A stretch of DNA of 52,042 bases from a virus (lineage: Duplodnaviria > Caudoviricetes), in IMG/VR virus record IMGVR_UViG_3300044591_001148, positions 1 to 52,042 of that record. One strand, 5' to 3'. Below the pieces are notes generated by a model that saw only the letters and a list, made by a program, of their open reading frames with translations, was not told the DNA's origin and did not search any database. Position 1 is the first letter of the stretch. Each line of letters begins with the position of its first letter. The translations under genes and the position numbers were made by a program. Below are positions 8,050-46,497 of the stretch, in pieces.

Positions 8050-10139
8050 TGATGGATGGCATTGAAGACAAAATCAAACAGGCCAAAAAAGCTGGTTATA
8101 GGGACGAGGATATCGTCCAGTTTTTGGCGCAGCTTCCAGACGTTGGGCCTCAAGTCTTGGCTGCATTGGAGCAGCAATACAAGCCAGCCGAAATTCTAAA
8201 GTTCCTGGGGCAGTCTCCTGCTTACCGAGCAGGCACAGAGAAATCTACGTTGCAGCGCGGTGCCTTAACTGCACTGCAAGGGCCAACTTTTGGGTTTGCT
8301 GACGAGCTGTATGGCGCAGTCAGCGCACCATTCACAGCGGTACAGCAAGGCATCCCGATGGGTCAGGCGTATGAGCAAGGACGGGATGTTGTTCGAGGTC
8401 AAACAGAATCGTTTGAACAAGAATCGCCATTCACTGCTGCTGGCCTGCAACTCGCAACCAGTTTGCCTATGGGAGTGATCAGCGCACCAGCCGCCATTGG
8501 CAGGGCAGTTATGCCAGCCATCACCCGTGCATTACCAACCGTAGCACCAGCTATCCAGGCCGCAGGCAGATACATGACAGCAGCTCCTGGTGCTGGTACG
8601 GCAATGGGTTTAGGTCAGCGCACAGCTCAAGCTGCTGGCTCTGGTGCTGGCTACGGGTTTGTTAGCGGTTTAGGGGCATCCAATGAGAGTGATGCAATAG
8701 ACATACTCAACGATGCAGCCAGAAGTTCACTGATTGGTGGCACTCTTGGCGGTGTATCACAGCCCACCATGAGCGTTTTAGGTGCTGCTGGCAGACAAGC
8801 CACAGCAAGAATGTCCCCCACAGCCGCTGGAACCTACGCCCAGCAAAAAGTTGCCGAGGCTTTAATTCGTGATAAACCAGAGAATTTAGCCCCAAGCGCA
8901 CTGAACATGGCGCAGGCCAGGCTCTTGAAACTTGGCCCAGAGGCGCGTATTGCTGACGTTGGTGGCAAGTCCACACGCAACCTGCTGGATGTGCAGGCCA
9001 CATTGCCTGGCACCACGGCAGAGGCTGTGGAACGTGCCATTCGGGAGCGCCAGGTAGGACGCGCTGGAAGACTGATGGCTGGTGCTGATGAGGCACTTGG
9101 CACTCAAAACGCACAGTTTACGCAGAGCATTGACAACTTTAGTAACCAGAGATTTGCCGCATCACGCCCGTACTATGCTGCAATTGATCAATCTACAGCA
9201 ACGGTGAATAATTCCATCTTTGATGCCTTGAGCAAATCAAAGGGTGTGCAAGGTTCTGCTGAACTGCTGTTCAGAACAAAGACGGGTCAGGTGATTGACT
9301 TGTCAAATCTCAAGCCTGGTGACTCGGTGCCAATGAATGTCCTGGATTCGTTAAAGCAATCTCTTTATGACACATCTACGGAACTGCGTAGAGCTGGCAG
9401 CAATGCCCAAGCTGAAGCGTATGACAAGGTGCGGTTACAACTTGTCAAGCAATTGGAAGACCAAGCGCCAAAGATTGGTGGTCAATCTGCCTACACAATG
9501 GCAATGAAAACATGGGCTGGTCCATCACAGATGATGGATGCTGCTGAGATTGGTCGCAAGGTAATGAAGGGCGATATTCTTGACATACAGCAGGCCACCA
9601 AGAATTTATCTGCCTCTGAGATTGACGCATTCCGAATTGGTGTGTTGCAGGGACTGAGAGAGAAAACTGGCACTGAGGCTGGACAGACATCACTGCTGAA
9701 GTTTTACAAAGAGCCAAGCACACAGGCTAGATTAAGGGCTGCATTTGGAGGAGACTTCAAAGCATTCTCTTCCTCTGTTTTGGCTGAAGAAGCTCTCAAA
9801 CGATTTGAGTCTGCTGGTCGCGGTTCTAAAACGGCTGCAATGCTTGCTGGCGGTGCAGACTTGGATGTTGCACCACTGGCACAGGCAGCAGGCTCAGTGG
9901 CATCTGGAAGTCCAACTGCAATATTGACTGCAGCAAGTAACCTGGCTCGACAGACGCAAACGCCAGAGGCTGTTCGCAATGAAATCGGAAAGATTTTGCT
10001 TTCACGTGACCCCAGGCAACTACAGCAGCTTTCTGAAATCATCAGACAACTGAACGCATCACGGGCAAGGGCGGCGGGTGCTGCAGGCTTTGGTGCGGGT
10101 CAGATAGGTGGCATGGCCCCCAGTTATTTTGCACCATAA
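8049..10139 (+). CDS. Putative large ejection protein
   Basis: AKKAGY-x-DEDI N-terminal motif, QGPTFGFADE motif, Ala/Gly-rich. Confidence 0.6.
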   Translation: MMDGIEDKIKQAKKAGYRDEDIVQFLAQLPDVGPQVLAALEQQYKPAEILKFLGQSPAYRAGTEKSTLQRGALTALQGPTFGFADELYGAVSAPFTAVQQGIPMGQAYEQGRDVVRGQTESFEQESPFTAAGLQLATSLPMGVISAPAAIGRAVMPAITRALPTVAPAIQAAGRYMTAAPGAGTAMGLGQRTAQAAGSGAGYGFVSGLGASNESDAIDILNDAARSSLIGGTLGGVSQPTMSVLGAAGRQATARMSPTAAGTYAQQKVAEALIRDKPENLAPSALNMAQARLLKLGPEARIADVGGKSTRNLLDVQATLPGTTAEAVERAIRERQVGRAGRLMAGADEALGTQNAQFTQSIDNFSNQRFAASRPYYAAIDQSTATVNNSIFDALSKSKGVQGSAELLFRTKTGQVIDLSNLKPGDSVPMNVLDSLKQSLYDTSTELRRAGSNAQAEAYDKVRLQLVKQLEDQAPKIGGQSAYTMAMKTWAGPSQMMDAAEIGRKVMKGDILDIQQATKNLSASEIDAFRIGVLQGLREKTGTEAGQTSLLKFYKEPSTQARLRAAFGGDFKAFSSSVLAEEALKRFESAGRGSKTAAMLAGGADLDVAPLAQAAGSVASGSPTAILTAASNLARQTQTPEAVRNEIGKILLSRDPRQLQQLSEIIRQLNASRARAAGAAGFGAGQIGGMAPSYFAP

Positions 10140-10758: not shown

Positions 10759-11000
10759 AGCCGCTTCCTCGGCAGCGGCGCCCAATACTGCCAGAACTGC
10801 GTCTCGCCCACCTTGTAGATGTAGTGCCCCATCGTGGCAACACCAGACCGTCCTAGTAACAGCACCTTGACACCTTGCGGTGTCTGATCGTCAATAGGCA
10901 TCCAGAAGTAGTCTTGTGCTACTGCTGCCGTGAAGGTGCTGTCCAGCCTGAACTTCTGCTCATGCCTGAAACGCTCAAACTCTTCGTCCTCAGTATCCAT
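10755..11000 (-). CDS. Hypothetical early protein (homolog of 50701-50949)
   Basis: W-x-PID-x2-TP-x-GVKVLLLGR...HW/YWAPLP; the homolog lies in the same window. Confidence 0.8.
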   Translation of the reverse strand: MDTEDEEFERFRHEQKFRLDSTFTAAVAQDYFWMPIDDQTPQGVKVLLLGRSGVATMGHYIYKVGETQFWQYWAPLPRKRL

Positions 11001-11784
11001 TGCGCTCCTTTAGCTTGGCTTCAATAAGTTTTGTGAGACACACCACTTTCCACAACAAGTCGCCGAAATCAACTTCCATGTCAGCTACTGCGTCACTCAT
11101 TTCCTCATCCGTCAGCCCCTGCCACGGGCGCTGTGCTGCGGGTGGGGTGGTGTAGAGCGCATACGCAACGCAAGTACCCCCGATGCGTTTTGCCTCTGCT
11201 TTTGCGTCAATCTCCGCAAACTCATCACGCCACATTTTTGAACAGCCTTGCACCGCCCACGCCACCGGCTCATGCTCTGGCTGTGCTACTGGCTGTGCCT
11301 TCGTATTCCCACAGTCTTTGTAATGACACGCATCTCCGTCTTGGCAGGGGCATCGCGGGTCTTTTCCTATGCACGGCTCGGCTTGCTGCTTGGGTGGGGC
11401 AACTTTTTTGATTGCCTGATGCACAACATGGAACATGGTTTCGTAATGACCGTGCTTTCCCTCCTGCATTTTTTCGTCATACAAGCTTTGTACAAAGCAG
11501 TTAATTTCTGTTTTGTCATACGCCACCGGCTCCTGCTCTGGTTGCGCTGCTGCAAGTGGGGTAGCAAAGTGATCAGCCAACTCACGCGCTTTGTGCTTGT
11601 TGATACCCTCGCGGACTAGGCTGACTACAACCATGTCACGCCACTGGGTTGGCTCCTGCTCTGGCTGTGCCAGTTCGGTTTGCAGGGCGGTGATGGCTTC
11701 TACGATGTGCGTGTACTTGGTCACATAACGCTCATCTTCCAGCGCCTCCAGCGCCTGTTGCGCGGCTTGTCTTAGGTCAGTCAT
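10990..11784 (-). CDS. Mosaic early protein with QPEQEPVA linkers
   Basis: Four linker copies separate unrelated modules; shares architecture with 51031-51936. Confidence 0.75.
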   Translation of the reverse strand: MTDLRQAAQQALEALEDERYVTKYTHIVEAITALQTELAQPEQEPTQWRDMVVVSLVREGINKHKARELADHFATPLAAAQPEQEPVAYDKTEINCFVQSLYDEKMQEGKHGHYETMFHVVHQAIKKVAPPKQQAEPCIGKDPRCPCQDGDACHYKDCGNTKAQPVAQPEHEPVAWAVQGCSKMWRDEFAEIDAKAEAKRIGGTCVAYALYTTPPAAQRPWQGLTDEEMSDAVADMEVDFGDLLWKVVCLTKLIEAKLKERNGY

Positions 11785-12074: not shown

Positions 12075-12370
12075 TTTGTTGCTCCTATCACGGCCAATGC
12101 AATGGCGCGTTGTGGTGTGTCTGCGTTAAAAAACCCGAGTTTGTATTTGCCCCTTGATATTGCCTCCCATGCCCTGCCCCTTAGTCTCAAAGGGAAGCAG
12201 TCGTACCTCTCCGCAATCGGGCCGATCACGTTCCAGTCGCGGTGGGAGAACACGCGCCAACTACCGTTGTACACAACAACTGCCCACATATCGTCGTGGA
12301 ACTTAACATCAAACAGCTTGTACCCAATAGCCAGCGCCAGCGCCTTGTCGATTTCAATGTCAGTCATCAC
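12071..12370 (-). CDS. NinX-like phage protein
   Basis: DWNVIGPIAER...W-x-A...TPQRAIA pattern. Confidence 0.55.
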   Translation of the reverse strand: MMTDIEIDKALALAIGYKLFDVKFHDDMWAVVVYNGSWRVFSHRDWNVIGPIAERYDCFPLRLRGRAWEAISRGKYKLGFFNADTPQRAIALAVIGATK

Positions 12371-12990
12371 ATCCCCCTCTTTGGTGTGTTTAAAGCACGA
12401 TCAATACTCCACCCATTTCTAAGCCGCGCGTAAAGCGTTGAATAGGGTAGGCCAACTTCTAAAGCCCAATCTTGAACTAACATTGTTTTGCCTTTATGCT
12501 CAATCCAAACCGTCACACTACGATTTTTGTTTTGCTCAAATTTTGTAGCCCATCTGCAATTTTCTGGCGTGTAGTCACCGTTGTTGTCAATGCGATCAAG
12601 CGAGTGGTCTTTGGTTGGTTTGCGGCCCATATCGGATAAAAAATTAAGGTAGTTCTCCCACCTTCCGCAAACTTTTATACCCCGTCCACCATACTTCTCG
12701 TAGTATTTTGTGTTTTGATCTTTGCAACGGTTACGCATACTTCTCCATGCGTAATACTCAAGCGACTTGTGGTCGCCGTGTATCGTGTGTGTTTCTGTTT
12801 TTAGACACCCGCACGATTGTGTTTTTCCAAGTCGCAACGGAGTTGTGGCTACAACGGTTTTGTTTCCACACTCGCAGATGCAATTCCAAATTCGCTTCTG
12901 ATGCTTGTCAACACCAGCGCCAGATGAGACTGTTAGTTTGGAAAACTTCAGCCCAATCATTTCACCAAGGTCATTTCTTTGTTTACGCAT
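12367..12990 (-). CDS. Free-standing HNH homing endonuclease
   Basis: CECGN, SCGC, YGGRGIKVC, SLDRIDNNGDYTPENCRWAT motifs; AT-richer than neighbours; ATG 12990 avoids overlap with the upstream gene. Confidence 0.85.
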   Translation of the reverse strand: MRKQRNDLGEMIGLKFSKLTVSSGAGVDKHQKRIWNCICECGNKTVVATTPLRLGKTQSCGCLKTETHTIHGDHKSLEYYAWRSMRNRCKDQNTKYYEKYGGRGIKVCGRWENYLNFLSDMGRKPTKDHSLDRIDNNGDYTPENCRWATKFEQNKNRSVTVWIEHKGKTMLVQDWALEVGLPYSTLYARLRNGWSIDRALNTPKRGM

Positions 12991-12998
12991 GGTTTCTA

Positions 12999-13328
12999 TT
13001 ATAAACCAGAATCGGCCAAGAACTCGGCCAAGATCAAACAGAACACACGGCGCTGTTCTTCGGTGCTTTTCCAATATCCATCTTCCCTTTCAATCTCAAC
13101 CCGACAGTAAGGAACGTCAGCATCTTCACAGTCACCAGTTAGCGCAACCTCCCGTAGCATCGTGCTGATCGGGCCGTACTGCAAGTGTTCGTCAGCCGGG
13201 TGGATGCGGTAATAGCGCATATCTTCAACCAAAACAAGTTGTCCGGTTGCTTGCCAAGAGTCTCCTGAGTCCACCCATTTTGTTTGTATCCTCGCTCCAC
13301 GGGCGGCAGCGTGTAGTAGTCTGCTCAT
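12999..13328 (-). CDS. Hypothetical early protein
   Basis: ATG 13328 with GGAG upstream, coupled to the previous stop. Confidence 0.65.
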   Translation of the reverse strand: MSRLLHAAARGARIQTKWVDSGDSWQATGQLVLVEDMRYYRIHPADEHLQYGPISTMLREVALTGDCEDADVPYCRVEIEREDGYWKSTEEQRRVFCLILAEFLADSGL

Positions 13329-14682: not shown

Positions 14683-14791
14683 ATTCTAGCGTCACGCTAG
14701 TACAGGTCAAGCACTCAAGCAAAAATATTTGCTATGACAAACCCTTAAGGGTAAACACCTACACATTTAGTCTCAAGCATTACGCTAGAAT
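14683..14791. promoter_or_regulatory. Divergent promoters with two operator-like palindromes
   Basis: Leftward TTGACC(14710-14705)-16 bp-TAGAAT(14688-14683); rightward TAGAAT 14786-14791; CTAGCGTCACGCTAG 14686-14700 and CAAGCATTACGCTAG 14774-14788. Confidence 0.7.
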
Positions 14792-14798
14792 TCTTCGC

Positions 14799-15005
14799 AT
14801 GGAAAACAAATTGACAGCAACGCAACGCCAAGAACTTGCCCAGACGGTCGGCCTCAACGAACAGTGGCTCTACCAGTGCCTCAGTGGTAGGCGGGACATG
14901 AGTCCTGCTGAAGCCATCCGAGTGGAGGCTGCATCTGGTGGTCTAGTCACCCGGCAGATGCTGTGCCAAGGGACATGGTCCAAGATTTGGCCTGAGTTGG
15001 CATGA
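14799..15005 (+). CDS. Cro/YdaS-like HTH regulator
   Basis: 68 aa HTH: QQELA...WLYQCLSGRR...IEAA-like SGGLVTR; first rightward gene. Confidence 0.8.
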   Translation: MENKLTATQRQELAQTVGLNEQWLYQCLSGRRDMSPAEAIRVEAASGGLVTRQMLCQGTWSKIWPELA

Positions 15006-15538
15006 GCAATCTACAATCCCCCCAGGCTATGCAGTTGCCTACTTTAGGGGGGGACAATTTGTCCCCCCCTTCCTTTTCTCGGGTCATTGGCATTGACCCT
15101 GGCGCATCAGGCGCTATTGCACTGCTCCTGAACGGTGTGCTGGTGTCAGTACACGATATGCCAACAGTTACCGTCGAGCGCAACAAGGCGCAGAAACGCC
15201 AAGTCTGTCCTGCTGGCCTTGCACTCTTGATGCAGCAGCTCGCACCTCACAAGGCCATTGTCGAGAAGGTAGGAGCAATGCCTGGTCAGGGTGTCTCTTC
15301 CATGTTCAGCTTTGGGCGTTCAGTTGGCATCATCGAGGGAGTGCTTGCCGCCAAGCAGATACCTGTGACGTTTGTCACACCACAAGCCTGGCAGAAGCAA
15401 TCAGGTGCCGCCAAGGGCAAGGACGGGAGTCGGCAGCGGGTCATGGAGCTGTTTCCTCGGGAGGCGCATCTCTTTGCAAGGGTCAAGGACGATGGACGAG
15501 CTGACGCTGTTCTGATTGGTCTATGGGGTGGTGTATGA
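15002..15538 (+). CDS. RuvC-like Holliday junction resolvase
   Basis: IGIDPG, VEKV, FSFG, W-x-K and DGRADA motifs. Confidence 0.85.
   Translation: MSNLQSPQAMQLPTLGGDNLSPPSFSRVIGIDPGASGAIALLLNGVLVSVHDMPTVTVERNKAQKRQVCPAGLALLMQQLAPHKAIVEKVGAMPGQGVSSMFSFGRSVGIIEGVLAAKQIPVTFVTPQAWQKQSGAAKGKDGSRQRVMELFPREAHLFARVKDDGRADAVLIGLWGGV
15046..15079 (+). terminator. Terminator-like hairpin downstream of cro
   Basis: AGGGGGGGACAA-T-TTGTCCCCCCCT perfect inverted repeat followed by TCCTTTTCT. Confidence 0.55.
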
Positions 15539-15759
15539 CTCTACAAGAAGATGAACGTAAGACGCTGAAGGCGCACATCCTCTGGCTGGGGACTGAGTTG
15601 GAGAAGTCCAGACTCCAGTGCCGAGCCAAGACTGAATTGCTGAAGCGGATGCTGGACCCAGAGGACTTGGGACACGCAGTCAGTAACGAGGTTCGCGCCA
15701 GCATCTACCAAATCCTCATCGAAGACAGTCACAACGAAAGAGACGCATGGAACAGATAA
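15535..15759 (+). CDS. Hypothetical protein
   Basis: ATGA overlap with the resolvase stop; LDPEDLGHAV motif. Confidence 0.6.
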   Translation: MTLQEDERKTLKAHILWLGTELEKSRLQCRAKTELLKRMLDPEDLGHAVSNEVRASIYQILIEDSHNERDAWNR

Positions 15760-16820
15760 AACAGACACTGCTAAGACCAAGTGCTGCTGGACGGTGGATT
15801 GCTTGCCCTGCAAGCGTCCAACTGTCAGCCAAGATGCCAATGGGAGAGTCAGGTGCTGCCGCGCAGCGGGGGACTGCAATTCACAGTCTCTCAGAGTCTT
15901 GTTTTATGACCTCCAGCTTGCCAGAGGAGTGGCTGGGCGTGGAGGTGGAGGGTGTCAGGATGGACGAGGAGGCCATCACCTACGCTCGCAAGCACTTGGA
16001 CTACATTGAGGGTGAGGAGAAGCGTTTGGGTAACGTATTTGTTGAGCAGTACGTCACTGCCCTAGACACGCACAACGTCCGAGTTGCGGGTACTGCTGAT
16101 GTCCTGGGCTGGTCAGATGACACTGGTGAATTCGTCATTGGTGACCTGAAGACAGGGCGGGGATACGTTGATGCTGACAGTGACCAGATGCGTATCTATG
16201 CACTCGGCGGTATGCGTCTGGCAAAGAAGACATTCAAGACGGTGACAATGACCATCGTCCAGCCAGTGCATGGCGTTAACCGCAGTCACACCATGACGGT
16301 CAGTGAGTTGCTCAAGTGGGAGCGCAATGTCCTGATTCCAGCTGCACAGGCTGCAATGGCACCAGACCCCAAGGTAGTACCAAGTGAATCAGCCTGCCAG
16401 TGGTGTCCTGCCAGGGCCATTTGTCCAGCGCACATTGAAACATTTACTGAGCTGGCTGAAGCAGCCTTACCGCAGGCACTCAGCAATGAGCAGTTGGCGT
16501 CCTACCTGAACCAAGTCTCCAAGGTTGAGGCGTTCATCAAGGCACTTGAGACTTACGCAGTCAAGTGCATCAAGGACGGTGCAGCAGTACCAGGCTGGCA
16601 GATGGGGTCCAAGAAGTCAACGAGGAAGTGGACTGATGAGACTGAGGCTGTTGGTGCCTTGGTGCTGGCTGGACTCACTCAAGACCAAATCTATCCAAGA
16701 GAAATCATATCGCCAGCAGTTGCTGAGAAGTTGCTGAACGATAAAACAGTCACGGAAACCTTGACAACCAAGGTGTCCAGTGGACTCACCCTATGCCGAG
16801 CATTCGGCATTGGTGAGTAG
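15747..16820 (+). CDS. PD-(D/E)XK nuclease, DUF2800/Cas4-like
   Basis: PS..RWIACP, GTAIH, GTAD, DLKTG, QMRIYA, CQWC-x5-C motifs. Confidence 0.85.
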   Translation: MEQIKQTLLRPSAAGRWIACPASVQLSAKMPMGESGAAAQRGTAIHSLSESCFMTSSLPEEWLGVEVEGVRMDEEAITYARKHLDYIEGEEKRLGNVFVEQYVTALDTHNVRVAGTADVLGWSDDTGEFVIGDLKTGRGYVDADSDQMRIYALGGMRLAKKTFKTVTMTIVQPVHGVNRSHTMTVSELLKWERNVLIPAAQAAMAPDPKVVPSESACQWCPARAICPAHIETFTELAEAALPQALSNEQLASYLNQVSKVEAFIKALETYAVKCIKDGAAVPGWQMGSKKSTRKWTDETEAVGALVLAGLTQDQIYPREIISPAVAEKLLNDKTVTETLTTKVSSGLTLCRAFGIGE

Positions 16821-16864
16821 TGTCAGTGTGTGTTTAATTCTTAACTCTTAACTCGGAAATCAAA

Positions 16865-17452
16865 ATGCTAAATCTTTCAAGCAACGGCGGTGGGTCTTAC
16901 ATTCGTTTCATGGCGCAAACCCGCCAATGGGAAAACTCTAGCAAGGAGTCAATCACATTGCCGCCAATGGTGATGGACATGGACAGTGTTCGCACTGGCT
17001 GGCTTCTGCTTGGTATCGGTCAGCGGGATTGGGTGGAGGACGAGTCTGTTGGTAAGAAGGGTAAGCAGCCTTCTGCTGACCACAAGCGTGGCTTCAGTGT
17101 CAAGCTGTTCTCGAAACCTACAGGTGTCGTTGAGTGGTGTGCGTCTGGTGTTGGTGTCACCAAGGGCTTTGAGGCCATCTACAACGCCTGTGATGCACAG
17201 GCTGACCACAACCCTGGCAAGGTGCCAGTGATCAATTACGAGGGTGCAACTGCTCTCAAGATTGGCGCAGGAAATACGGCAATTCCCAACTTCAAGTTGA
17301 AGAACTGGGTTAACCGTCCTGCTGCATTGGATGCTGATGGTGAGGCTGTCTACGAGGAGGAAGCACCAGCACCAGCACCAGTGCGTCAGGCAGCAAGGCC
17401 AGCTCCCAAGCCAGCGCCTGTGGTTGAGGATGACGAGGAAATGTTCAACTAA
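16865..17452 (+). CDS. Putative single-stranded DNA-binding protein
   Basis: Pro/Ala linker and acidic aromatic-tipped tail (EDDEEMFN); between nuclease and primase. Confidence 0.55.
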   Translation: MLNLSSNGGGSYIRFMAQTRQWENSSKESITLPPMVMDMDSVRTGWLLLGIGQRDWVEDESVGKKGKQPSADHKRGFSVKLFSKPTGVVEWCASGVGVTKGFEAIYNACDAQADHNPGKVPVINYEGATALKIGAGNTAIPNFKLKNWVNRPAALDADGEAVYEEEAPAPAPVRQAARPAPKPAPVVEDDEEMFN

Positions 17453-17469
17453 AATTTAAACGACAAAGG

Positions 17470-17495
17470 AACCCGGCCTGGTGCCGGGTTTTTTT
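17470..17495 (+). terminator. Rho-independent terminator
   Basis: AACCCGGC-CTGGT-GCCGGGTT followed by a T run. Confidence 0.85.
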
Positions 17496-17592
17496 GACCC
17501 TATGAAACAAGAATATTGGAATCTGCTCCTCATTGCCCTGGCGCGTCGGGTGTACGAGCTGGAGCAGAGAATAAAAACACTGGAAACTGCAC

Positions 17593-19662
17593 ATGGATGC
17601 AAAACTGATTGCGGCGGCACTAGGACACTCAAGGCCAGCAGCAAACGGACATTGGCTGGCGTCCTGCCCGGTCCTTGACCATGGACAGGGGAATGGGGAC
17701 AAGAACCCATCACTGTCAGTCAGGGATGAGGACGGTAAGCTGCTGCTGAAGTGTCACGGTGGATGTTCGCAGCAGGATGTTTGGGCAGCGGTCAGGGACA
17801 TGGGGCTGCTGCCTGAGACATCAGAGTGGGTGGAGCCATTGGCTGGCATTGGCAGGCGTATCAATGGACACCATCCACCAACACCAAGGTTACCAGTACC
17901 TACTACACCTACTACACCAGTTCAGGTAGAACTAGAGCAGGAGTGGCTGTACGAGGATGAGTCTGGCGTCACACAATTCGTGAAGCAGAGGTTCCGAACT
18001 TCAGACGCCAAGGGTAAGACGTACAAGTTGTTGCGGGTGATGTCTGACGGAACCCGGCAGGCGTCAATGTCGGGTGCTAGGATCATCCCTTACCGTCTCG
18101 CTGATGTCCTCGAGGCCAAGTTCCAAGCAAAGCCAATATTCATTTGCGAGGGTGAGAAGGCGGCTGATGCCTTGGCATCACTTGGCGTCTTTACTTGTAC
18201 GTCTCACACTGGTGCTGGGAGTTGGCCTGCTGCCAACAGCGTTTGGTTTAAGGACTTAGCGGTGGTGCTGGTCCCAGACAATGACGCACCAGGCTATAGA
18301 TATGCATCCTTGGTAGCGGCTGCACTTCTTCCAATTGCCAAGTCAGTCAGACTCCTGGCGTTACCCGTAGGGCATACGGAGGATGCGTTTGAGTGGGTGG
18401 CGGCTGGTGGTGATAAGTCTGGCCTGATGGCACTGTGCAAAAGGTTGGAGCCTATCTCTGATGCCTCAGAGATTGTTTATCTCCCACCACCAGCACCAGC
18501 AGAAGACTCTGAGCCAGACGCCGAGGAACTGGATTCAGAGACAGAGGAAGTCGAAAGTAAGATTTTGATTGAGGAGTGGGACACCATCCAGGATGAGCCA
18601 GTGGAGTGGCTGATTCAGGACGTTCTGCCCAGAAAGGGATTCAGCGCACTGTTTGGACCACCGGGTTCGTTCAAGTCTTTTGTGGCCTTGGACATTGCTC
18701 ATTCAGTAGCTACGGGTAAGGCCTGGATGGGTAAGGAGGTGTCTGTCCCTGGCGCAGTGCTTTACATCTGTGGTGAGGGGCATGGAGGCATTGGGGCTAG
18801 GATCAAGGCACTGCGAGTGCATCACAAGACTGAGCCTGGCGCACCAGTCTACGTTATTCGTCACCAGTTGAACTTACGCAGTTCAAAGGAAGACGTACAG
18901 CAGCTCCAGCTTGCCATCACCAACCTAGTGGCAAGGACTCAGGTCAGGTTTGAGCTGGTGCAGGTAGACACCTTGGCTAGAGCGTTTGGCGGTGGCAATG
19001 AGAATGACTCGTCGGACATGGGGTCGTTCATTGCCTCGCTATCAAAGATTCAGCGCCTGTTGGACTGTGCATTGCAGATCGTCCACCACGTTGGTAAGGA
19101 TGTCACCAAGGGACTGAGGGGTCACAGTTCACTACTTGGTGCGTTAGATACTGAGTTGGAACTCCAACGTATTAATGATGGGTTACAAGATAATAATATT
19201 GCTGGTGCTGGTAATATAACTATTACTAAGCAGAAGGATGGAAGTGACGGTGCTAAGTATGGATTTCGTATGGTCAAGGTGGACTTAGATAATACTAATT
19301 TAGGGTTTGAATCTACTCAGAGTTTGGCGGTTGAGGCTACGGATGTGGCTGTAAATGTGCAGCCAGTTGGCCTGAAAAGGACGGGTCAGGGTAAGCATCA
19401 GGGCAAGGCAATGGCAGCTTTTGTGGAGTCAATCAGGGAAACTGATCGCATTCAGTCCACCAAGTTTGGTCAAAAGAAGGTGACTTTGGTGTCTCTTTGG
19501 CGGGAAAAAGTGTGGCGTGGGTTGGGTAAAACGGGTGAGGTTAAGGGTCGAGACATCGAATTTAAGGCTGCTTGGAGGGCTGCAACCAACCTTGAGGGTG
19601 TGACGTTGGACGGTGATTTTGCGTTCTTCACCACCAAGTTTAACGAGAAAGAGCACTTTTAG
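17593..19662 (+). CDS. Primase-helicase (Zn finger + TOPRIM + RepA/AAA_25 helicase)
   Basis: CPVLDH/CHGGC; CEGEKAAD and DND; Walker A GPPGSFKS, Walker B VDT, IVHH, RGHS. Confidence 0.9.
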   Translation: MDAKLIAAALGHSRPAANGHWLASCPVLDHGQGNGDKNPSLSVRDEDGKLLLKCHGGCSQQDVWAAVRDMGLLPETSEWVEPLAGIGRRINGHHPPTPRLPVPTTPTTPVQVELEQEWLYEDESGVTQFVKQRFRTSDAKGKTYKLLRVMSDGTRQASMSGARIIPYRLADVLEAKFQAKPIFICEGEKAADALASLGVFTCTSHTGAGSWPAANSVWFKDLAVVLVPDNDAPGYRYASLVAAALLPIAKSVRLLALPVGHTEDAFEWVAAGGDKSGLMALCKRLEPISDASEIVYLPPPAPAEDSEPDAEELDSETEEVESKILIEEWDTIQDEPVEWLIQDVLPRKGFSALFGPPGSFKSFVALDIAHSVATGKAWMGKEVSVPGAVLYICGEGHGGIGARIKALRVHHKTEPGAPVYVIRHQLNLRSSKEDVQQLQLAITNLVARTQVRFELVQVDTLARAFGGGNENDSSDMGSFIASLSKIQRLLDCALQIVHHVGKDVTKGLRGHSSLLGALDTELELQRINDGLQDNNIAGAGNITITKQKDGSDGAKYGFRMVKVDLDNTNLGFESTQSLAVEATDVAVNVQPVGLKRTGQGKHQGKAMAAFVESIRETDRIQSTKFGQKKVTLVSLWREKVWRGLGKTGEVKGRDIEFKAAWRAATNLEGVTLDGDFAFFTTKFNEKEHF

Positions 19663-19663
19663 G

Positions 19664-19816
19664 GTGTTCACAAATGGGAACAAATGGGGAACAAATGGTA
19701 GACGATTTATGAACAGAAAAGTGTTCACAAATGGGGGCAAGGGTATAACACTTGCCCATTTGTGAACAGTTGGGTAGGTGTTTTGGGGTGGGAACAAATG
19801 GAAGGGGAACAAATGG
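19664..19816. repeat. ACAAATGG iteron array with hairpin; candidate replication origin
   Basis: Direct copies at 19670, 19680, 19691, 19727, 19794, 19809; one inverted copy at 19756. Confidence 0.75.
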
Positions 19817-20463
19817 CAAAAGGTAAAACAGTGGTGGTGGAGGCTAGTCGCTATCCGTTGGATGAGTTCAAGGTGAAGGCTGAGTCTTTGGTGGCTAGGT
19901 TGGAACGGGTGAAGAATGACCATGAGGCTAGGTGGGGAATTAGGCGCATTGAGATGCTGGTGGATTCCAGCTTGAGGTTGAGGCTGGAGCAGCAGATGGA
20001 GAGGGTCTTCAATGCACAGCAGGAGAGGGACATCGAGAAGATGGAGAAGGCGGTTAACGGGATGGTTAAGGGATATGGTGTTCTTGACCAGTGGGCATTA
20101 GATAATAATATTGAGCAGCCGAGTATTAATGCAGTGGAGTGGGTTATGCAGGACAAGAGTGTGATGGTGGTGGTTCAGACTCACGCTGATGCAATATATT
20201 ATCAACAGTTTCGGCCTGATGTTGGTAATAGGCATATATGGTCAATGGAGGAGTTAGAGTTATTATTGCAGTCAGATATTATTAAGGATATTATTAAGGC
20301 AAAGGCGTTACTCCCAGGCACAAGGATGGTTCAGGTGACGCCAGGTGGTAAGACAGGGTTTGATGACTGGCCTGATGCTGACGTTGACCTGAGCGGGGGA
20401 ATCGAGGAGCCTTTGTTCAACTTTGAACACGCAAGGATGATGGGTGGCGTTAGGAGCCGTTAA
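19813..20463 (+). CDS. Hypothetical protein
   Basis: ATG at 19813 with GAAGGGG upstream; intact ORF. Confidence 0.65.
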   Translation: MAKGKTVVVEASRYPLDEFKVKAESLVARLERVKNDHEARWGIRRIEMLVDSSLRLRLEQQMERVFNAQQERDIEKMEKAVNGMVKGYGVLDQWALDNNIEQPSINAVEWVMQDKSVMVVVQTHADAIYYQQFRPDVGNRHIWSMEELELLLQSDIIKDIIKAKALLPGTRMVQVTPGGKTGFDDWPDADVDLSGGIEEPLFNFEHARMMGGVRSR

Positions 20464-20530
20464 AATCGACTCAGGTGGCATCAAAGGTACAGAGTGGTAC
20501 TTGGGGTGCTTGGTTCAACGATAGACGATT

Positions 20531-20965
20531 GTGGAGCGTTTAAAGATGTATGTGAAGCGGAAGGCAGACATCGCCATGCTGGAGTCAATCGACAAGGAAA
20601 TCGTCTTTTCGATGATCGAGGTGGGTAAGTCAATTGCTAATGTCTGCATTGAATTGGGCATTAGCAAGCGTGCGCTTGAGACTTGGATTGAAGATAACGG
20701 TTATGAGCCGGATATACTACGCGCACGCGTGCGTGCTGCCGATATGATGGCTTGCGAGACTGTGGAAATAGCCGACACCATCTCCGACGATAACCCGAGC
20801 AAGCCGCTGCACCGCATCCGAACGCGCCAGTGGCTCGCCGAGAGGTGGGACGCGAAGACATATGGCGCGAAACAGGCAGCGGTGACGGTCAATATCGGCA
20901 ACCTGCGCCTGGACGCCTTGCGCCAGCTTGAGGTGGTCGAGGACTTATCCACAGGCGAAACGTAG
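20531..20965 (+). CDS. terS: Terminase small subunit
   Basis: N-terminal HTH; EIAD...RIRTRQWLAERW..KTYG motif; upstream of terL (start codon uncertain). Confidence 0.8.
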   Translation: MERLKMYVKRKADIAMLESIDKEIVFSMIEVGKSIANVCIELGISKRALETWIEDNGYEPDILRARVRAADMMACETVEIADTISDDNPSKPLHRIRTRQWLAERWDAKTYGAKQAAVTVNIGNLRLDALRQLEVVEDLSTGET

Positions 20966-21032
20966 ACTTTCCAGCTCTATCCTGTGGATAACTACAGGAT
21001 ATGGCTAAAGTGTCTGTATAGCCTGTGGATAA
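20945..21032. promoter_or_regulatory. Cluster of three perfect DnaA boxes
   Basis: TTATCCACA 20945-20953; TGTGGATAA 20983-20991 and 21024-21032. Confidence 0.8.
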
Positions 21033-21042
21033 GCCATTTGCT

Positions 21043-21070
21043 TGTTAACATAATGGACATCGTATTAAGC
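21043..21070 (-). other. dif-like XerC/XerD recombination site
   Basis: Minus strand GCTTAATACGA-TGTCCA-TTATGTTAACA: 11-6-11 layout, with the XerD arm 9/11 to TTATGTTAAAT. Confidence 0.65.
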
Positions 21071-21317
21071 ATTCGGTGCATAACTGCTGTTTCCGTATGT
21101 TTTACGCAACATGGTGAGTCCAGACGCTGGCGGCTCCAGCCTGCCGCGCCAGCCGGGTGACCCCCCCGTCAGCGCCAACGGCGGGGGCGGCAGTTGCAGC
21201 ACCAAACGCCTACCGAAAAAAATAAAACGTAACGTAAAAATAAAACATAGCACCCCCCCACCCACCGCTACTCGCAACACGCCTTCCAAAAAAAATAAAA
21301 AATGCATAATATGAAAT

Positions 21318-22727
21318 ATGACCACTGACGCTAATCCGTTCCTCGCCTTTGCCAAGCTGTATAAAAACAACCCTGTGCTGTTTGTAAGGGAAGTCCTTGG
21401 CGTTAAGCCTGACCCCTGGCAAGAGGAATTCTTGGGGCATATCGCCGCCAACAACAGGCGCATCAGCGTTAGGTCCGGGCACGGCGTCGGCAAGAGTACG
21501 GCAGCGTCCTGGGCCATCATCTGGTATCTGCTGCTGCGTTTCCCGGTGAAGATTGTGGTGACAGCCCCCACCAGCAGCCAACTGTATGACGCGCTGTTTG
21601 CCGAGTTGAAACGCTGGGTGAAGGCGCTACCACCGACACTGCAGGAGCAGTTGGAGGTGAAGCAGGACCGCATCGAGGTGAGAGAGGCACCGACAGAGGC
21701 GTTCATCAGCGCCAGGACATCACGCGCAGAGCAGCCCGAGGCGCTGCAAGGCGTCCACTCCGACAATGTGATGCTGGTGGCTGACGAGGCCAGCGGTATA
21801 CCAGAGCAGGTGTTCGAGGCGGCGGCAGGCAGTATGTCGGGCCACAAGGCCGTGACGCTACTCTTAGGTAACCCGGTACGCAGCAGCGGATTCTTTTTTG
21901 ATACGCACAACCGCCTGAAGGATGACTGGGTGACGATGAAGGTGAGCTGCGCCGACAGCCCCAGGGTGTCAGACGCCTATATGGACGAGATGAAGTCTAG
22001 GTACGGTGAGGAGAGCAACGCCTACCGCATCCGGGTGCTGGGTGACTTTCCGAGGAGCGATGACGATACCGTGATACCTATGGAGCTGCTGGAGGCGGCA
22101 ACGAACAGGGACGTAGCAGTCAGCCCAATAGCCAAGGTTGTGTGGGGGCTGGACGTTGCGAGGTTTGGCAGTGACAGGAGCGCATTATGCAAGCGGCAGG
22201 GTAATGCAGTTACCGAGCCAGTCAAAACGTGGAAGAACCTGGACCTGATGCAACTGACTGGCGCGGTGATGGCTGAGTACCAGGCGCTACCACCGGACCA
22301 GCGTCCGCATGAGATTATGGTGGATAGTATTGGGTTGGGGGCTGGTGTGGTGGACAGGCTGCGTGAGCTGAAGTTGCCAGCCATTGGCATTAACGTGGCA
22401 GAATCCCCGGCATTGGGGAGTACCTACCGGAATCTGAAGGCTGAGTTGTGGCACAAGGCCAAGGCTTGGCTGGAGAAGCGGGACTGCGTTATTCCCAAGG
22501 ATGAGTCCTTGATTGCTGAACTGGCGACAGTAAGGTACTTCTTTACCAGTGGGGGTAAAATTCAGATTGAGGGCAAGGACGAGATTCGCAAGCGTGGGTT
22601 GGCGTCACCCGACAAGGCTGATGCCTTTTGCCTTACATTTGCCAGCGATGCCGGGACTGCGATGTTCGGCTCGCAGATGCATAAGTATGGTTCGAGTTTG
22701 AAACGTAACCTGACGAGGGCAGCATGA
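21318..22727 (+). CDS. terL: Terminase large subunit
   Basis: Walker A SGHGVGKS, Walker B LVADEA, GNP, nuclease GLDVARFGSD and SPDKADA. Confidence 0.95.
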   Translation: MTTDANPFLAFAKLYKNNPVLFVREVLGVKPDPWQEEFLGHIAANNRRISVRSGHGVGKSTAASWAIIWYLLLRFPVKIVVTAPTSSQLYDALFAELKRWVKALPPTLQEQLEVKQDRIEVREAPTEAFISARTSRAEQPEALQGVHSDNVMLVADEASGIPEQVFEAAAGSMSGHKAVTLLLGNPVRSSGFFFDTHNRLKDDWVTMKVSCADSPRVSDAYMDEMKSRYGEESNAYRIRVLGDFPRSDDDTVIPMELLEAATNRDVAVSPIAKVVWGLDVARFGSDRSALCKRQGNAVTEPVKTWKNLDLMQLTGAVMAEYQALPPDQRPHEIMVDSIGLGAGVVDRLRELKLPAIGINVAESPALGSTYRNLKAELWHKAKAWLEKRDCVIPKDESLIAELATVRYFFTSGGKIQIEGKDEIRKRGLASPDKADAFCLTFASDAGTAMFGSQMHKYGSSLKRNLTRAA

Positions 22728-34969: not shown

Positions 34970-35421
34970 TCGACTTAACCAAAACCATCGGGGCAGTCGC
35001 AGCCAGCATTGCAGCCATTGGCGGCGGGTACACGTTGGCAGACAAGTTTGGTTGGTTTGACAGAGCCATTCTTGAGTGGTCACCAGAGCATTTTAAAATC
35101 ACAGCGGCGGCAGGGCAACCTATCAATGTGACAGTGGCCCGGATTAAAAAGCGTGATGATTGCTCTGTTGAGAGTTTTACCCCAAGCATCCGTGACGCAG
35201 CAGGTATGGTGCACGAGGCAACGACAACGGCAAGCAAATTCAGCGGCCCAGCAGGGCCAACGATTGACACGTTTACCTACCAATTGACTATGGTGCAAAA
35301 AGAAAAGATTGCACCCGGCACAGCCACCCTTCTGGCAACGATCAAATACAAATGCCCCGAGGGTGAGCGCGTTGTGCAGTACCCACGCCATGCAAACCTG
35401 AGTTTTGACTTGAAAGGCTGA
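34966..35421 (+). CDS. Membrane-anchored hypothetical protein, lysis module B
   Basis: ATG at 34966; N-terminal hydrophobic helix; two Cys. Confidence 0.6.
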   Translation: MIDLTKTIGAVAASIAAIGGGYTLADKFGWFDRAILEWSPEHFKITAAAGQPINVTVARIKKRDDCSVESFTPSIRDAAGMVHEATTTASKFSGPAGPTIDTFTYQLTMVQKEKIAPGTATLLATIKYKCPEGERVVQYPRHANLSFDLKG

Positions 35422-35423
35422 CC

Positions 35424-35915
35424 ATGCTAACCCTACTCTCGACCCTGATCTCCTTCCTCGCCGGGGGCTTGCCAAAGCTGCTTGGCTTTTTCCAAGACAG
35501 GGCAGACAAGAAGCATGAGATGGCCATGGCCCAATTGCAGATCGAGCGAGAGCTGGAGATGCGCAAGGCCGGGTACGAAGCCCAGCAAAGGGTCGAGGAG
35601 ATCAAGATCGAAGGGCAGATGATCGAGGCAGAGGCATCAGAACGAGCGGCCTTGTACGCGCACGACATCGCCATAGGTCAGGGCGCCAGCCAGTGGATGG
35701 TCAATCTCCGGGCCGGTGTCCGGCCCCTGTTGACTTACGGCTTCTTCTTGCTATTTACCTTCGTCGAAGTCGGCGGGTTTGTCTACGCTTGGAACCACGG
35801 GGTGGCGTTCGATGTTCTGCTCACCAAGTTGTGGAACTCTGACACTCAGATCATCTTTGCATCGATCATCAGCTTCCACTTCGGCGGCCGGGCATTCAAA
35901 GGCGGCAAGGATTGA
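35424..35915 (+). CDS. Holin-like membrane protein
   Basis: LRAGVRPLLTY...FHFGGR motifs; TM helices; directly before the lysozyme. Confidence 0.6.
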   Translation: MLTLLSTLISFLAGGLPKLLGFFQDRADKKHEMAMAQLQIERELEMRKAGYEAQQRVEEIKIEGQMIEAEASERAALYAHDIAIGQGASQWMVNLRAGVRPLLTYGFFLLFTFVEVGGFVYAWNHGVAFDVLLTKLWNSDTQIIFASIISFHFGGRAFKGGKD

Positions 35916-36388
35916 AAGTCTCTGCCCGTTGCAAGGAGATGATCAAGCACCACGAGGGTGTTCGATTTAAACCGTACCGATGCCCAGCGCGTCTTTTTAC
36001 GATTGGAGTAGGTCATGTCCTTTACCCAGATCAAGGTCGCTTACCTTTGGATCAAAGAGACGCTTTCCCACTTGCGGCAGCAGATAACCGCACGTTTTCA
36101 AAGGCAGAAGTAGATGGAATTCTTGGCCGCGATCTTCAGCGATTTGAGGTTGGGGTTGCCAAGCTCTTTCCCGTGGTTCTCACCCAAGGCCAGTTTGATG
36201 CTCTCGTCAGCTTTGCTTTTAATCTCGGTCTGGGAGGAGTTCAGCGATCAACGCTCCGTCAAAAGGTTCTTCGCGGAGAGATCGAAGAAGCGGCGGACGA
36301 GTTTCTGAAATTCACAAGGGGCGGGGGCAAAATCCTGCCCGGACTGGTAAAGCGCAGAAATGATGAACGCGCCCTGTTCTTAATGTAA
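35912..36388 (+). CDS. Endolysin, GH24 lysozyme
   Basis: HEG-x-..Y-x-C-x5-TIG catalytic triad, QFDALVSFAFNLG, GLVKRR..E. Confidence 0.92.
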   Translation: MKVSARCKEMIKHHEGVRFKPYRCPARLFTIGVGHVLYPDQGRLPLDQRDAFPLAAADNRTFSKAEVDGILGRDLQRFEVGVAKLFPVVLTQGQFDALVSFAFNLGLGGVQRSTLRQKVLRGEIEEAADEFLKFTRGGGKILPGLVKRRNDERALFLM

Positions 36389-36393
36389 AATCT

Positions 36394-36439
36394 TTGCGGG
36401 GCCACTGCGCCCGCAATAGGCCGCCTAGTGCGGCTTTCC
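36394..36439 (+). terminator. Tandem hairpins after the lysozyme
   Basis: TTGCGGG..CCCGCAA then GGCCGC-CTAGT-GCGGCT-TT. Confidence 0.5.
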
Positions 36440-36455
36440 TATTTGTGGAGCGAAT

Positions 36456-37688
36456 ATGGCAACAGCAAACAACCCGTTTGATTTAAACACCACGTCAGGG
36501 GCAACCCTGCTCGGCAACGCTACGAGCGCGATCGCCGCACCTCAAGCCACTGGATACACCGCGGCGACGTCTGGCGCAACTGGTTACAAGGCTACCGACG
36601 CCAACCCGTTTGGATACACGGCCAGCACCATGACTGGCGAAGGTTACAACGCGGGTTCGCGAACAGCGGCCGGATACGACGCGGCCGGGGCCCTTGGCAC
36701 CAACTGGAACGTCGACAACAACCAAACAGTTCAAGGACAGATCGGCGGCCTGATTGCTGCCAACTCGCCCCTGCTCCAGCAAGCCCGTGCCAACTCATTG
36801 GCTCAGATGAACTCGCGAGGCTTGGTCAACTCGAGCATGGCCTTGGGAGAGGGCCAGAAGGCCGTCTACTCGGCAGCGCTCCCGATCGCCACACAAGACG
36901 CGGCCACCTTTGCCAACTCAGCTCAGGTCAACGCCAACGCTGCAAACCAGTTGGCCCAGTTCAACGCCGGCCAAAGCAACCAAGCCCTTGGTTTTACAGC
37001 CAACGCTCAGAACCAAGCCGGCTCAGAAAACTTGGCAGCCGGCAATCAGGCTCTCGGATTCACGGCTTCTGCGGCCAACCAAGCCGAAGCTCAAAACCAA
37101 GCTGCGAAAAATCAGGCCATGCAATTTGGCGCGGGTACAGCCAGCCAGACATCCGCGGCCAACGCAGCCGCGGCCAATCAGGCCGCACAGTTCACGGCCG
37201 GCGCGACCAATCAAGCGGCGGCGGCCAATGCGGCAGCCCAGAATCAGGCCGCCCAAGTCACGGCTGCCAACCAGACCGACGTCTCCAAGCAATACGCCAC
37301 CGCTCTCAACAGCACTGTCCAGAACATGATGGACCAGTCGATGAAGTTCGCCCTGTCGAACGCCGACGCTCAGACAAAGATCGAACTGCAGAACATCGAC
37401 GCGTCTACCCGCGCGACCTTGGCTGCAACAGAGGCCGCTTACAAAAACCAGATACAGGCATCGGCCAGCGCAAACGACGTCTTCCAGCAAGTGTCCAAGA
37501 ACATCGCCGACCTCATGGCCAACCCAGACCTCAGCGCTGATGTTAAAGACGCTACGGGTACGCCCCCTGTTACGCCGAAGCAGGCGGCCGTCAACATGCA
37601 GAAAGCCTATTTGCAGAATTCGCTTGAGATTCTCAGCGCAACGTCGGGAATCAAAGGGCTTAAAGATCTGTTGACCGGTCTGTCATGA
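36456..37688 (+). CDS. Putative DNA ejection/pilot protein with 11-residue repeats
   Basis: N/Q/A-rich; RGLVNSSMA motif; ten hendecad units. Confidence 0.65.
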   Translation: MATANNPFDLNTTSGATLLGNATSAIAAPQATGYTAATSGATGYKATDANPFGYTASTMTGEGYNAGSRTAAGYDAAGALGTNWNVDNNQTVQGQIGGLIAANSPLLQQARANSLAQMNSRGLVNSSMALGEGQKAVYSAALPIATQDAATFANSAQVNANAANQLAQFNAGQSNQALGFTANAQNQAGSENLAAGNQALGFTASAANQAEAQNQAAKNQAMQFGAGTASQTSAANAAAANQAAQFTAGATNQAAAANAAAQNQAAQVTAANQTDVSKQYATALNSTVQNMMDQSMKFALSNADAQTKIELQNIDASTRATLAATEAAYKNQIQASASANDVFQQVSKNIADLMANPDLSADVKDATGTPPVTPKQAAVNMQKAYLQNSLEILSATSGIKGLKDLLTGLS

Positions 37689-38074
37689 CACGCGAAGCCC
37701 TTCTTGAACCGATCATCTCCTCGGTTCGCAAGGGCACTGCGTTGTCGAGGTACCAGATCCTTGACTACTTTGCTGACTGGGAAGTTCTTCAGTTCGATTT
37801 TGAAGACCGGCTTGTTTGGACCATGGTGGCCAAAGGGACTGAAGTGCACATTGCTCTTGCCCCTGACTGGCAGCCAAGGGCCAGCATGCGTGACTCGGTC
37901 AGGGCTTTCCTTGAGCCGGTGTTTGAGAGACATGGCTTTTTGACCACTCGCGTATCTCACGAGCGAGTAGATCAAAAAAAGTTTGTGAAACGAATCGGGT
38001 TTAAGCCCACTTGGAAAGACGGGGACGTTGAGTACTACCTGCTTGGCAGCCTACCATTTGAGAGGAAAATATGA
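37685..38074 (+). CDS. Putative GNAT-fold morphogenesis protein
   Basis: EVH...FVKRIGF pattern; ejection-module position. Confidence 0.5.
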   Translation: MTREALLEPIISSVRKGTALSRYQILDYFADWEVLQFDFEDRLVWTMVAKGTEVHIALAPDWQPRASMRDSVRAFLEPVFERHGFLTTRVSHERVDQKKFVKRIGFKPTWKDGDVEYYLLGSLPFERKI

Positions 38075-39132: not shown

Positions 39133-39142
39133 GGAGCACAAA

Positions 39143-39631
39143 ATGGCAACAGGCATTATCCAAGACAAAATGGGCCGCCCTGAAGGCGACGAGATCACAA
39201 CCAAAGCGGTTTCTGACAACATCAAGATACCGCCTAAATTGCAAGAGGCTTATGACCGCGTGGTCATTGCAGGCATGAAGATCATGTTCTCCAAAGAAAG
39301 CCACCGGGCCATGCTTCAGGAGATCCAGAAGCCGGGTCCCTTGGACCAGCGTCTCGGCAAAGGCATTGCCGGCTTGATGCTCCTCATGTTCAAGGAGTCG
39401 AACGCGACGATGCCTCCGGACGTAATCATCCCGGCCGGAATCAAGCTGATGATGGAAGCAGTGGACTTCCTGCGCGACAGCGGACTGGAAAAACCAACCA
39501 ACTCTGACATCGCTGGTGGTATGGAGGTCATGATCTCCACGATCCTTGAGAAGTTTGGCGTTGCGCCTGAAAAGATGGCCCAGATGTTGAGCCAGTTCAG
39601 CAACGAAAACATCCCCGAGATGGGAGCCTGA
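39143..39631 (+). CDS. Hypothetical protein
   Basis: Strong AAGGAG Shine-Dalgarno; helical. Confidence 0.65.
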   Translation: MATGIIQDKMGRPEGDEITTKAVSDNIKIPPKLQEAYDRVVIAGMKIMFSKESHRAMLQEIQKPGPLDQRLGKGIAGLMLLMFKESNATMPPDVIIPAGIKLMMEAVDFLRDSGLEKPTNSDIAGGMEVMISTILEKFGVAPEKMAQMLSQFSNENIPEMGA

Positions 39632-39632
39632 T

Positions 39633-40628: not shown

Positions 40629-40637
40629 AAGAGCAAT

Positions 40638-46493: not shown

Positions 46494-46497
46494 GAAC

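Follow-up and report, generated by a model that had tools for sequence, protein, structure and literature searches.

We analyzed the tailed-phage record IMGVR_UViG_3300044591_001148 over its whole length of 52,042 bases (the window) and found that a short stretch between its terminase genes, reaching from the last codons of the small-subunit gene (terS) into the spacer before the large-subunit gene (terL), joins a cluster of DnaA boxes to a dif-like site for two recombinases of the host, XerC and XerD. The best explanation of our sequence comparisons is that this stretch, positions 20945-21084, would act as a landing pad for host proteins and as part of the phage replication module. Specifically, it may be a plasmid-like cassette in which a DnaA-dependent origin accompanies a host XerCD site for cyclizing the genome or resolving its multimers, and we put the probability of this reading at roughly 40%. 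The original prediction, made from the sequence of the window alone, had described a compact cassette with origin- and terminus-type host motifs side by side and had listed XerCD integration or dimer resolution, DnaA titration, and coupling to packaging as possible uses. Conservation, variation that respects the motifs exactly, and a match to host sites bear out the description but not integration at dif, and among the listed uses the comparisons favor replication and dimer resolution.

Three perfect DnaA boxes (TTATCCACA) and an 11-6-11 site lie exactly where they had been predicted (Table 1). The boxes are the only perfect copies of TTATCCACA in the window; all three extend to TTATCCACAGG, and their starts are 38 and 41 nt apart, without pairing. 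The predicted placement of the cassette between terS and terL holds for most of it but not for box 1, which falls inside the last terS codons and not in the spacer. A chance origin of the cluster is excluded: in 1000 dinucleotide shuffles of the whole record, the mean number of perfect boxes was 0.247, three or more boxes occurred in 3 shuffles, and two boxes within 100 nt occurred in none. A degenerate motif, GGTGCATAA, had also been noticed near 21075. It is present, and we read it as a fourth, weaker DnaA box and not as an Xer arm, because it becomes GGTGGATAA in one relative (L022).

The boxes are conserved well beyond the window. A terL scan of viral contigs gave 594 relatives, and among the best 80 of these, which were kept, 66 loci have both terS and terL, with a spacer of ~120 to 550 bp. 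Most relatives retain two to five boxes even at a terS identity of 41-58%, and the boxes are unchanged across the terS identity range of 41-100%. In a set of 53 unique related loci, TTATNCACA is found 106 times in the cassette regions (22,276 nt) and once elsewhere (305,070 nt), while a reversed control motif is found 0 and 4 times, respectively. Variation among the 106 copies is confined to position 5 (C in 88, G in 12, A in 6), and the sequence flanking the 9-mer is not conserved among relatives. We take this pattern to mark a site used by a conserved host protein and not by the diverging TerS.

The dif-like site reads GCTTAATACGA-TGTCCA-TTATGTTAACA on the minus strand. Of 82 regions examined, 58 keep its core, which takes 22 unique forms, and the joint DnaA and dif arrangement, which the original prediction had proposed to look for in related phages, does recur in such phages. 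None of the 22 unique phage sites departs from the 11-6-11 spacing. Their XerD arm, TTATGTTAA, does not differ from that of host sites and is near-constant, with one G in 23 strings, and the left arm has a phage consensus of its own that ends in ATACGA or ATACAA. Eight hexamers occur in the 22 sites (TGTCCA, TATCCA, CGACCA, TGTTCA, CGGGCA, CGGGCG, CGGACG, and TAGCCA). The host hexamer TGTATA is found in none of them, and the site is thus dif-like and not a copy of dif.

Relatives of the phage were binned with metagenome-assembled genomes (MAGs) of Burkholderiaceae, Polynucleobacter, and Limnohabitans, the last a member of the Comamonadaceae, and the host assignment rests on these MAG bins. Our survey of dif covered 151 genomes from the family to which the Limnohabitans MAG belongs. 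Only 1 of the 151 has the canonical arm, CGCATAA-N6-TTATGTTAA, and for this reason the search was moved to the pattern ATACRA-N6-TTATGTTAA, which occurs with at most one mismatch in 66 of the 151 genomes, mostly in single copy (4 matches for the control). The commonest host string is ATACGA TGTATA TTATGTTAA. The resemblance of the ATACGA left arm to Comamonadaceae dif, which the original prediction had stated, is thereby confirmed in the genomes of this family; the main text of a list of proteobacterial dif sites does not mention the Comamonadaceae (PMC2731167). In the complete 4.22-Mb genome G118, the site at 3.72 Mb and the tightest box cluster at 1.66 Mb are near-antipodal. Aligned with each other, host sites read NNTNNATACGA TGTATA TTATGTTAANT and the phage site GCTTAATACGA TGTCCA TTATGTTAACA, and in one type of phage site (L038) all 22 arm positions are those of one host dif, the hexamer being the only difference. 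The canonical arm type stands at the equivalent place in a sister lineage (L127) and in phage C72C1, and it is also found in dif candidates of the Polynucleobacter and Burkholderiaceae MAGs. The arms of the site appear to follow the dif type of the host, and we read the site in the window as a mimic of a Comamonadaceae-family dif with a hexamer private to the phage. A two-replicon genome (G039) has a dif-type site on each replicon (L117, C2:541980; L122, C1), with identical arms and the hexamers TTAAGA and TATATA.

Arms that equal those of host dif, in a phage in which no integrase was recognized, could mean that the site is an attachment site by which the phage lysogenizes through XerCD at host dif, like double-stranded elements of the VGJphi type. 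Integrative mobile elements exploiting Xer (IMEX), among them CTXphi, VGJphi, TLCphi, a gonococcal island, gokushoviruses, and double jelly-roll (DJR) phages, likewise have no integrase of their own and a dif-like site that matches the host. The XerC-side bases of the hexamer in the window (TGT) are those of the host and the XerD side alone differs, which is the layout of the VGJphi attP as described in excerpts of a review of IMEX elements and plasmid Xer sites (PMC5357621). Near-identical relatives have TAT at these bases, some further clades also have TGT or TAT there, and a host with the hexamer TATATA exists. We nevertheless regard integration as distinctly improbable. The hexamers of other clades, such as CGACCA and CGGGCA, match no observed host hexamer on the XerC side, and searches for an integrated copy gave none. 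When one genome per species was scanned, only three close terL relatives came up, each on a contig of 3-13 kb, one with the phage arrangement (L084), one ending at the hairpin described below (L085), and one without a cassette upstream (L086). In 401 host-family genomes, a close terL was present only on a short contig already seen in that scan, and the eight other matches were at most 38% identical. Two sites within 60 kb on one contig, as a prophage between them would require, were seen in 0 of the 151 genomes. MAGs often lose prophages, and the absence of an integrated prophage from the genomes searched is therefore not proof. In the literature portions returned by our search, no tailed phage is described as an IMEX. 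Four genomes with second dif-like sites (G053, G114, G132, and G039) were considered as candidates and rejected, as they have no homolog of 21 proteins of the record and no boxes adjoining these sites.

The presence of the cassette varies together with the replication block of the phage. Among loci that have primase-helicase or 233-amino-acid (aa) genes of the type found in the window, 45 of 47 carry boxes and 46 of 47 the XerD-arm core (homologs of the primase-helicase stand upstream of terS in 47 loci, 45 of them with boxes). Loci with a polymerase-encoding block carry boxes in 0 of 9 and the core in 0 of 9; 24 loci could not be assigned to either block. One clade has a 93-97% identical terL and keeps the hairpin and leader upstream of terL, but its spacer is only 120-190 bp and holds neither boxes nor site. 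TTATNCACA is absent from both near-complete genomes of this clade, which has a DNA polymerase (phrog_17, E 4e-83) alongside a helicase and a primase in its replication block. In the window, the replication block comprises a RuvC-like resolvase, a DUF2800 nuclease, and the primase-helicase; searches with Pfam and PHROGs recognized no DNA polymerase in the 35-kb genome unit, and no replication initiator was recognized in the phage. The comparisons suggest that the cassette is linked to the polymerase-less replication module, that is, to a replicon that would need host initiation. The clade with 93-97% identical terL (L097, G009:C1:12000-24200) differs wholly from positions 14700-20500 of the window in its replication block, which has an SNF2-type helicase, a DUF2800 nuclease, a DNA polymerase, and a RepB/DUF5906 primase; its terS is only 68% identical.

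In the mechanism that we consider most likely, the injected genome would circularize, host DnaA bound to the boxes would open the DNA, and the phage helicase together with a host polymerase would begin plasmid-like replication. Host XerCD acting on the embedded site would make or keep monomer circles, either by recombination between two copies of the site in terminally redundant DNA, as Cre does at loxP in P1, or by multimer resolution, as at the cer and psi sites of plasmids. The loxP site of P1 lies near the packaging start, where it can be included in the terminal redundancy, and Cre/loxP both cyclizes injected DNA and resolves circular dimers. The phage analyzed here would resemble P1 in having a recombination site near its packaging genes and would differ from it in borrowing XerCD from the host, where P1 has a recombinase of its own. 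The private hexamer would allow recombination of one phage site with another and prevent crossover with chromosomal dif. Phages of the polymerase-encoding clade could replicate as linear DNA and would then need neither boxes nor site.

Several further observations fit this model. The assemblies of related genomes are circular or longer than one unit. Of 11 clade representatives scanned, 5 have the IHF consensus AATCAANNNNTTA at a distance of ~50 nt from the site, a feature shared with DnaA-dependent origins. DnaA-dependent origins such as oriC likewise have a cluster of consensus boxes and adjoin replication genes, and the plasmid origins of pSC101 and P1 (oriR) depend on DnaA. The differences from such origins are that no clear unwinding element and no iterons are present, that an Xer site stands where the boxes converge, and that the geometry varies between clades.

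Other points weigh against the model. Box number, spacing, and orientation around the site differ by clade, leaving no fixed origin geometry, and one clade has the site in inverted orientation. Directly beside the boxes, an AT-rich unwinding element is not obvious; the nearest A-tracts (21213-21250 and 21283-21317) are ~130 nt away, past a G+C hairpin, and are also present in the box-less clade. Monomer circles are not obviously needed by a phage whose packaging starts from concatemers. Very few independent swaps underlie the co-variation with the replication module, namely, one clear clade and two loci that are not fully typed (L044 and L031). In L031 the 233-aa gene is present and boxes are absent, and another locus (L081) has only boxes with one mismatch. 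A genome-end function would also fit the location, between terS and terL and ~90 nt away from a hairpin of the type that ends the terminal repeat of phage phiM5.

In another reading, the boxes would serve recombination only. DnaA boxes, with IHF in some clades, would then be accessory or architectural sites for an Xer synapse, comparable to those of PepA, ArgR, and ArcA at cer and psi, where ~180 bp next to the XerC arm serve PepA together with ArgR or ArcA; DnaA would time XerCD, and the origin would lie elsewhere. Boxes stand on both sides of the site in most clades, an IHF consensus falls between the site and a distal box, and the whole has a core-plus-arm look. Excerpts of the review cited above state that plasmid Xer sites require accessory sequences and proteins (PMC5357621). 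We find this reading unlikely. The portions of the literature that our search returned contain no case of DnaA as an Xer accessory factor, boxes lie on no constant side of the site (mostly next to the XerD arm in the window, next to the XerC arm in the genomic islands described below), and the link to the polymerase-less module fits replication better.

Even so, cer of ColE1 and psi of pSC101 are instructive parallels. As described in the same excerpts, they are XerC/XerD cores with a non-dif center on a foreign replicon that has no recombinase of its own, with sites for host architectural proteins nearby (PMC5357621). They differ in having PepA, ArgR, and ArcA sequences, where the phage has DnaA boxes and in some clades IHF; in addition, the carrier here is a tailed phage without recognized lysogeny genes, and its Xer recombination is predicted. 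The circular form of the phage genome is deduced from circular or concatemer assemblies only. At cer, the Holliday junction made by XerC is finished by an unknown resolvase (PMC5357621), and in the phage the RuvC-like resolvase could complete such a junction. A more far-reaching version, tentative and somewhat unlikely as a whole, would make XerCD the host-borrowed "Cre" of a tailed double-stranded DNA phage, cyclizing or monomerizing its DNA at the dif mimic, and the DnaA boxes and IHF its accessory architecture, with DnaA coupling recombination and the start of replication in one nucleoprotein complex, in a portable module of phages and islands from several host groups.

The pairing of boxes with a dif-like site is indeed found outside this phage family, and its recurrence in islands and other viral contigs also counts toward the accessory-site reading. 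Two Comamonadaceae-family host genomes, with only 11 and 23 perfect boxes genome-wide, carry an additional dif-like site whose hexamer is odd (CGGGCG and GTGGCG) beside DnaA boxes in genomic islands, and each of these pairs adjoins a small helix-turn-helix (HTH) gene that is homologous between the islands. True host dif sites had no box within 160 nt in 4 of 4 cases examined. The islands lie in G020:C1 at ~2.19 Mb (L111/L114) and in G118:C1 at ~0.668 Mb (L116); a P4-type primase, AlpA, a subtilase with an AAA ATPase, and arsenic-resistance-type genes are found in one of them, and a P4-type integrase accompanies a HigB-like toxin-antitoxin pair in the other. When viral contigs were scanned by pattern, at least 120 stretches matched, and most of the loci checked belong to this phage family. 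Two viral contigs with other gene sets, G414 and G415, have two to five boxes paired with a dif-like site, in G415 at 6 kb from a terminase gene. The left arm in these contigs ends in GATAA (L245 in G414, 8300-8380; L246 in G415, 8660-9160), and one of the two has a G+C content of 0.33. Collectively, these loci suggest that the pairing extends beyond one phage family or host group.

The location between terS and terL makes it necessary to consider a function in packaging or at the genome end, with the cassette as a terminal-repeat element recognized by terminase or as a means of holding the incoming DNA end at membrane-bound DnaA, as proposed for T5. A G+C hairpin (Table 1) that follows the cassette in the window is present in all relatives, including those without a cassette, and is probably a genome-end or packaging signal. 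The closest cultured relative by terL is phiM5 (53% identity), in which the 357-bp terminal repeat annotated in GenBank ends ~15 nt past a C9...G5 hairpin just upstream of terL; a hairpin of this kind is present in the window at 21161-21187. By analogy, the cassette would lie inside the terminal repeat if the phage has one of phiM5-like size. About 11 of 80 contigs from the pattern scan end within 70 nt of the cassette. T5-like phages keep conserved DnaA boxes in a noncoding part of the terminal repeat, where, according to the parts of a preprint available to us, they are proposed to stop injection, itself a hypothesis (bioRxiv 10.1101/866236). The likeness is that conserved boxes stand in noncoding DNA of a lytic phage, probably close to a genome end; the same parts of the preprint describe eight boxes in pairs 3 bp apart in inverted repeats and report no dif-like site, and the boxes in the window are not paired at 3 bp in large inverted repeats.

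We consider a packaging role quite unlikely, and coupling to packaging, which the original prediction had offered, is weakened by the clade that lacks the cassette and has 93-97% identical terL and the same hairpin. The boxes do not track terS over 41-100% identity, and the pairing is present in islands with no terminase gene found nearby and, in G415, far from the terminase gene. Read by eye, the phiM5 repeat has neither TTATCCACA nor a ACATAATG-type site. Contig starts are scattered in the first locus set, and the two contigs with the cassette at both ends proved to be exact 127-nt overlaps, an assembler artifact. An attempt to derive genome ends from contig starts was rejected, since the starts are scattered in the spacer and the 127-nt overlaps are artifactual and not a terminal repeat. 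Four lake runs were compared over 19800-22600, and assembled contigs of three of them, none being the possible source of the record, span the cassette unbroken, with no loose end or joint at the site, although such contigs show neither termini nor rare forms.

A C-run...G-run hairpin followed by a TGCA(G)CACC-type motif recurs upstream of terL in all relatives, distant cultured phages included, with counterparts in phiM5 (L094, 310-357) and C72C1 (L096, 2372-2395), and is likely to be a terminase cutting or recognition signal. The C-runs and A-tracts described in the original prediction are present over ~250 bp up to the terL start codon and are noncoding as proposed. A 67-aa open reading frame (ORF) at 21111-21314 was rejected as a gene, since its frame is broken by length changes that are not multiples of three and it has no Pfam match. 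The leader differs by +19, +23, +25, +77, and +78 nt among near-identical relatives. It expands and contracts (21208-21290, and at the same place in L004-L027) through short tandem repeats such as AACGCCA-type units; these changes, with the presence or absence of the cassette, give spacers of 120 to 550 bp, and assemblies often break there. An Rfam search of 20800-21450 returned only two microRNA families, far below threshold.

The least probable of the explanations we considered is that the cassette manipulates or senses the host, with boxes that titrate or recharge DnaA in the manner of datA or the DnaA-reactivating sequences (DARS), or with DnaA regulating a late promoter and the site sequestering XerD. 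One box facing two others is an arrangement also known from DARS, a replicating phage would offer many copies of the boxes, and a sigma-70-like promoter is predicted with its -35 element in box 3 and its -10 element (CATAAT) in the XerD arm. The promoter is retained as a minor alternative only, because the site, and with it the predicted -10 element, is inverted in one clade. Two arms kept at exactly 11-6-11 around a free hexamer are the pattern of a recombination site and would be unexpected for a promoter or decoy, and titration would leave the absence of the cassette from polymerase-encoding relatives unexplained.

Table 1. Positions of the cassette elements and of neighboring features in the window
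Feature	Position	Strand	Remarks
DnaA box 1	20945..20953	+	Perfect TTATCCACA; inside last terS codons
DnaA box 2	20983..20991	-	Perfect TTATCCACA
DnaA box 3	21024..21032	-	Perfect TTATCCACA; 10 bp from dif-like site
dif-like XerC/XerD site	21043..21070	-	28 bp, 11-6-11; XerD arm 21043-21053, hexamer 21054-21059, XerC arm 21060-21070
DnaA box 4 (putative)	21076..21084	-	Weaker, GGTGCATAA (TTATGCACC); last base is the single mismatch
Conserved G+C hairpin, then TGCAGCACCAAAC	21141..21207	+	C7 ... G5; longer arms 21141-21155 / 21179-21193; inverted repeat
A-tract / C-run leader	21208..21317	+	Noncoding, variable length; direct repeats D1, D2
RuvC-like resolvase	15002-15538		PHROGs/Pfam
Primase-helicase	17593..19662	+	T7 gp4-like: primase N terminus, AAA_25 helicase; PF13481 E 1.7e-39; PHROGs DNA primase/helicase families
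233-aa ORF	19762..20463	+	Function unassigned
Small terminase subunit, terS (Sf6-type)	20531..20965	+	PF20901 E 2.8e-13; phrog_1482; stop 20963-20965
Large terminase subunit, terL	21318..22727	+	phrog_2 E 5e-46; 594 relatives in viral contigs

The record that carries the cassette is a whole virus record, classed as linear and 100% complete. The real genome unit is ~35 kb, from position 1 to ~34,970, as the original prediction had recognized: relatives of 34.4-36.9 kb hold these positions in circular order, and two long relatives (G004 and G005) repeat themselves with periods of 34,441 and 37,214 as more-than-unit assemblies. Pfam and PHROGs identify an Sf6-type terS, terL, and genes for portal, scaffold, capsid, tail, and lysis. 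Of the ORFs scanned with these databases, none was recognized as an integrase, repressor, partition protein, or DUF3653-type factor, many small ORFs being without assignment; for integrase and repressor this agrees with the original prediction. The 233-aa ORF keeps a constant place between primase-helicase and terS in cassette-bearing relatives. Its relatives are hypothetical proteins only, it matches no PDB sequence, and a fold search with its structure model, which is of moderate confidence (mean predicted local distance difference test [pLDDT] score of 66.6), gave no match at E <= 0.001. An HNH endonuclease gene (12367-13074, minus strand; phrog_374, E 4.5e-66) lies in the leftward early operon. 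The final 17 kb of the record (34970-52042) is not found in the 35-kb relatives, and the record has the look of one complete unit to which an alternative tail or injection module from a co-occurring variant is attached, in a chimeric or more-than-unit-length assembly. This part encodes an endolysin, ORFs of 1784 aa and 1327 aa, and a leftward ORF (51031-51936) whose short repeats recur in the ORF at 10990-11784. At 46633-47780, inside the 1327-aa ORF, direct repeats of 93 and 77 nt (92-95% identical) point to duplication of a domain within a large protein of virion type.

Xer sites on foreign DNA have so far been described from plasmids, from filamentous and other small phages, and from a few islands, and DnaA boxes from origins and a few phage regions. 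Here the two are combined in one conserved cassette, in an abundant freshwater family of tailed phages without recognized lysogeny genes; the literature portions returned by our search contain no tailed phage in which DnaA boxes flank a host Xer site. If the plasmid-like reading is right, a small phage with neither a polymerase nor an initiator would become a plasmid-like replicon by means of host proteins alone, and the arm type of its site would give a hint to host range from sequence only. In that case the cassette may also uncover a new accessory role of DnaA in site-specific recombination, and its recurrence in islands and unrelated viral contigs suggests a wider module that has gone unnoticed.

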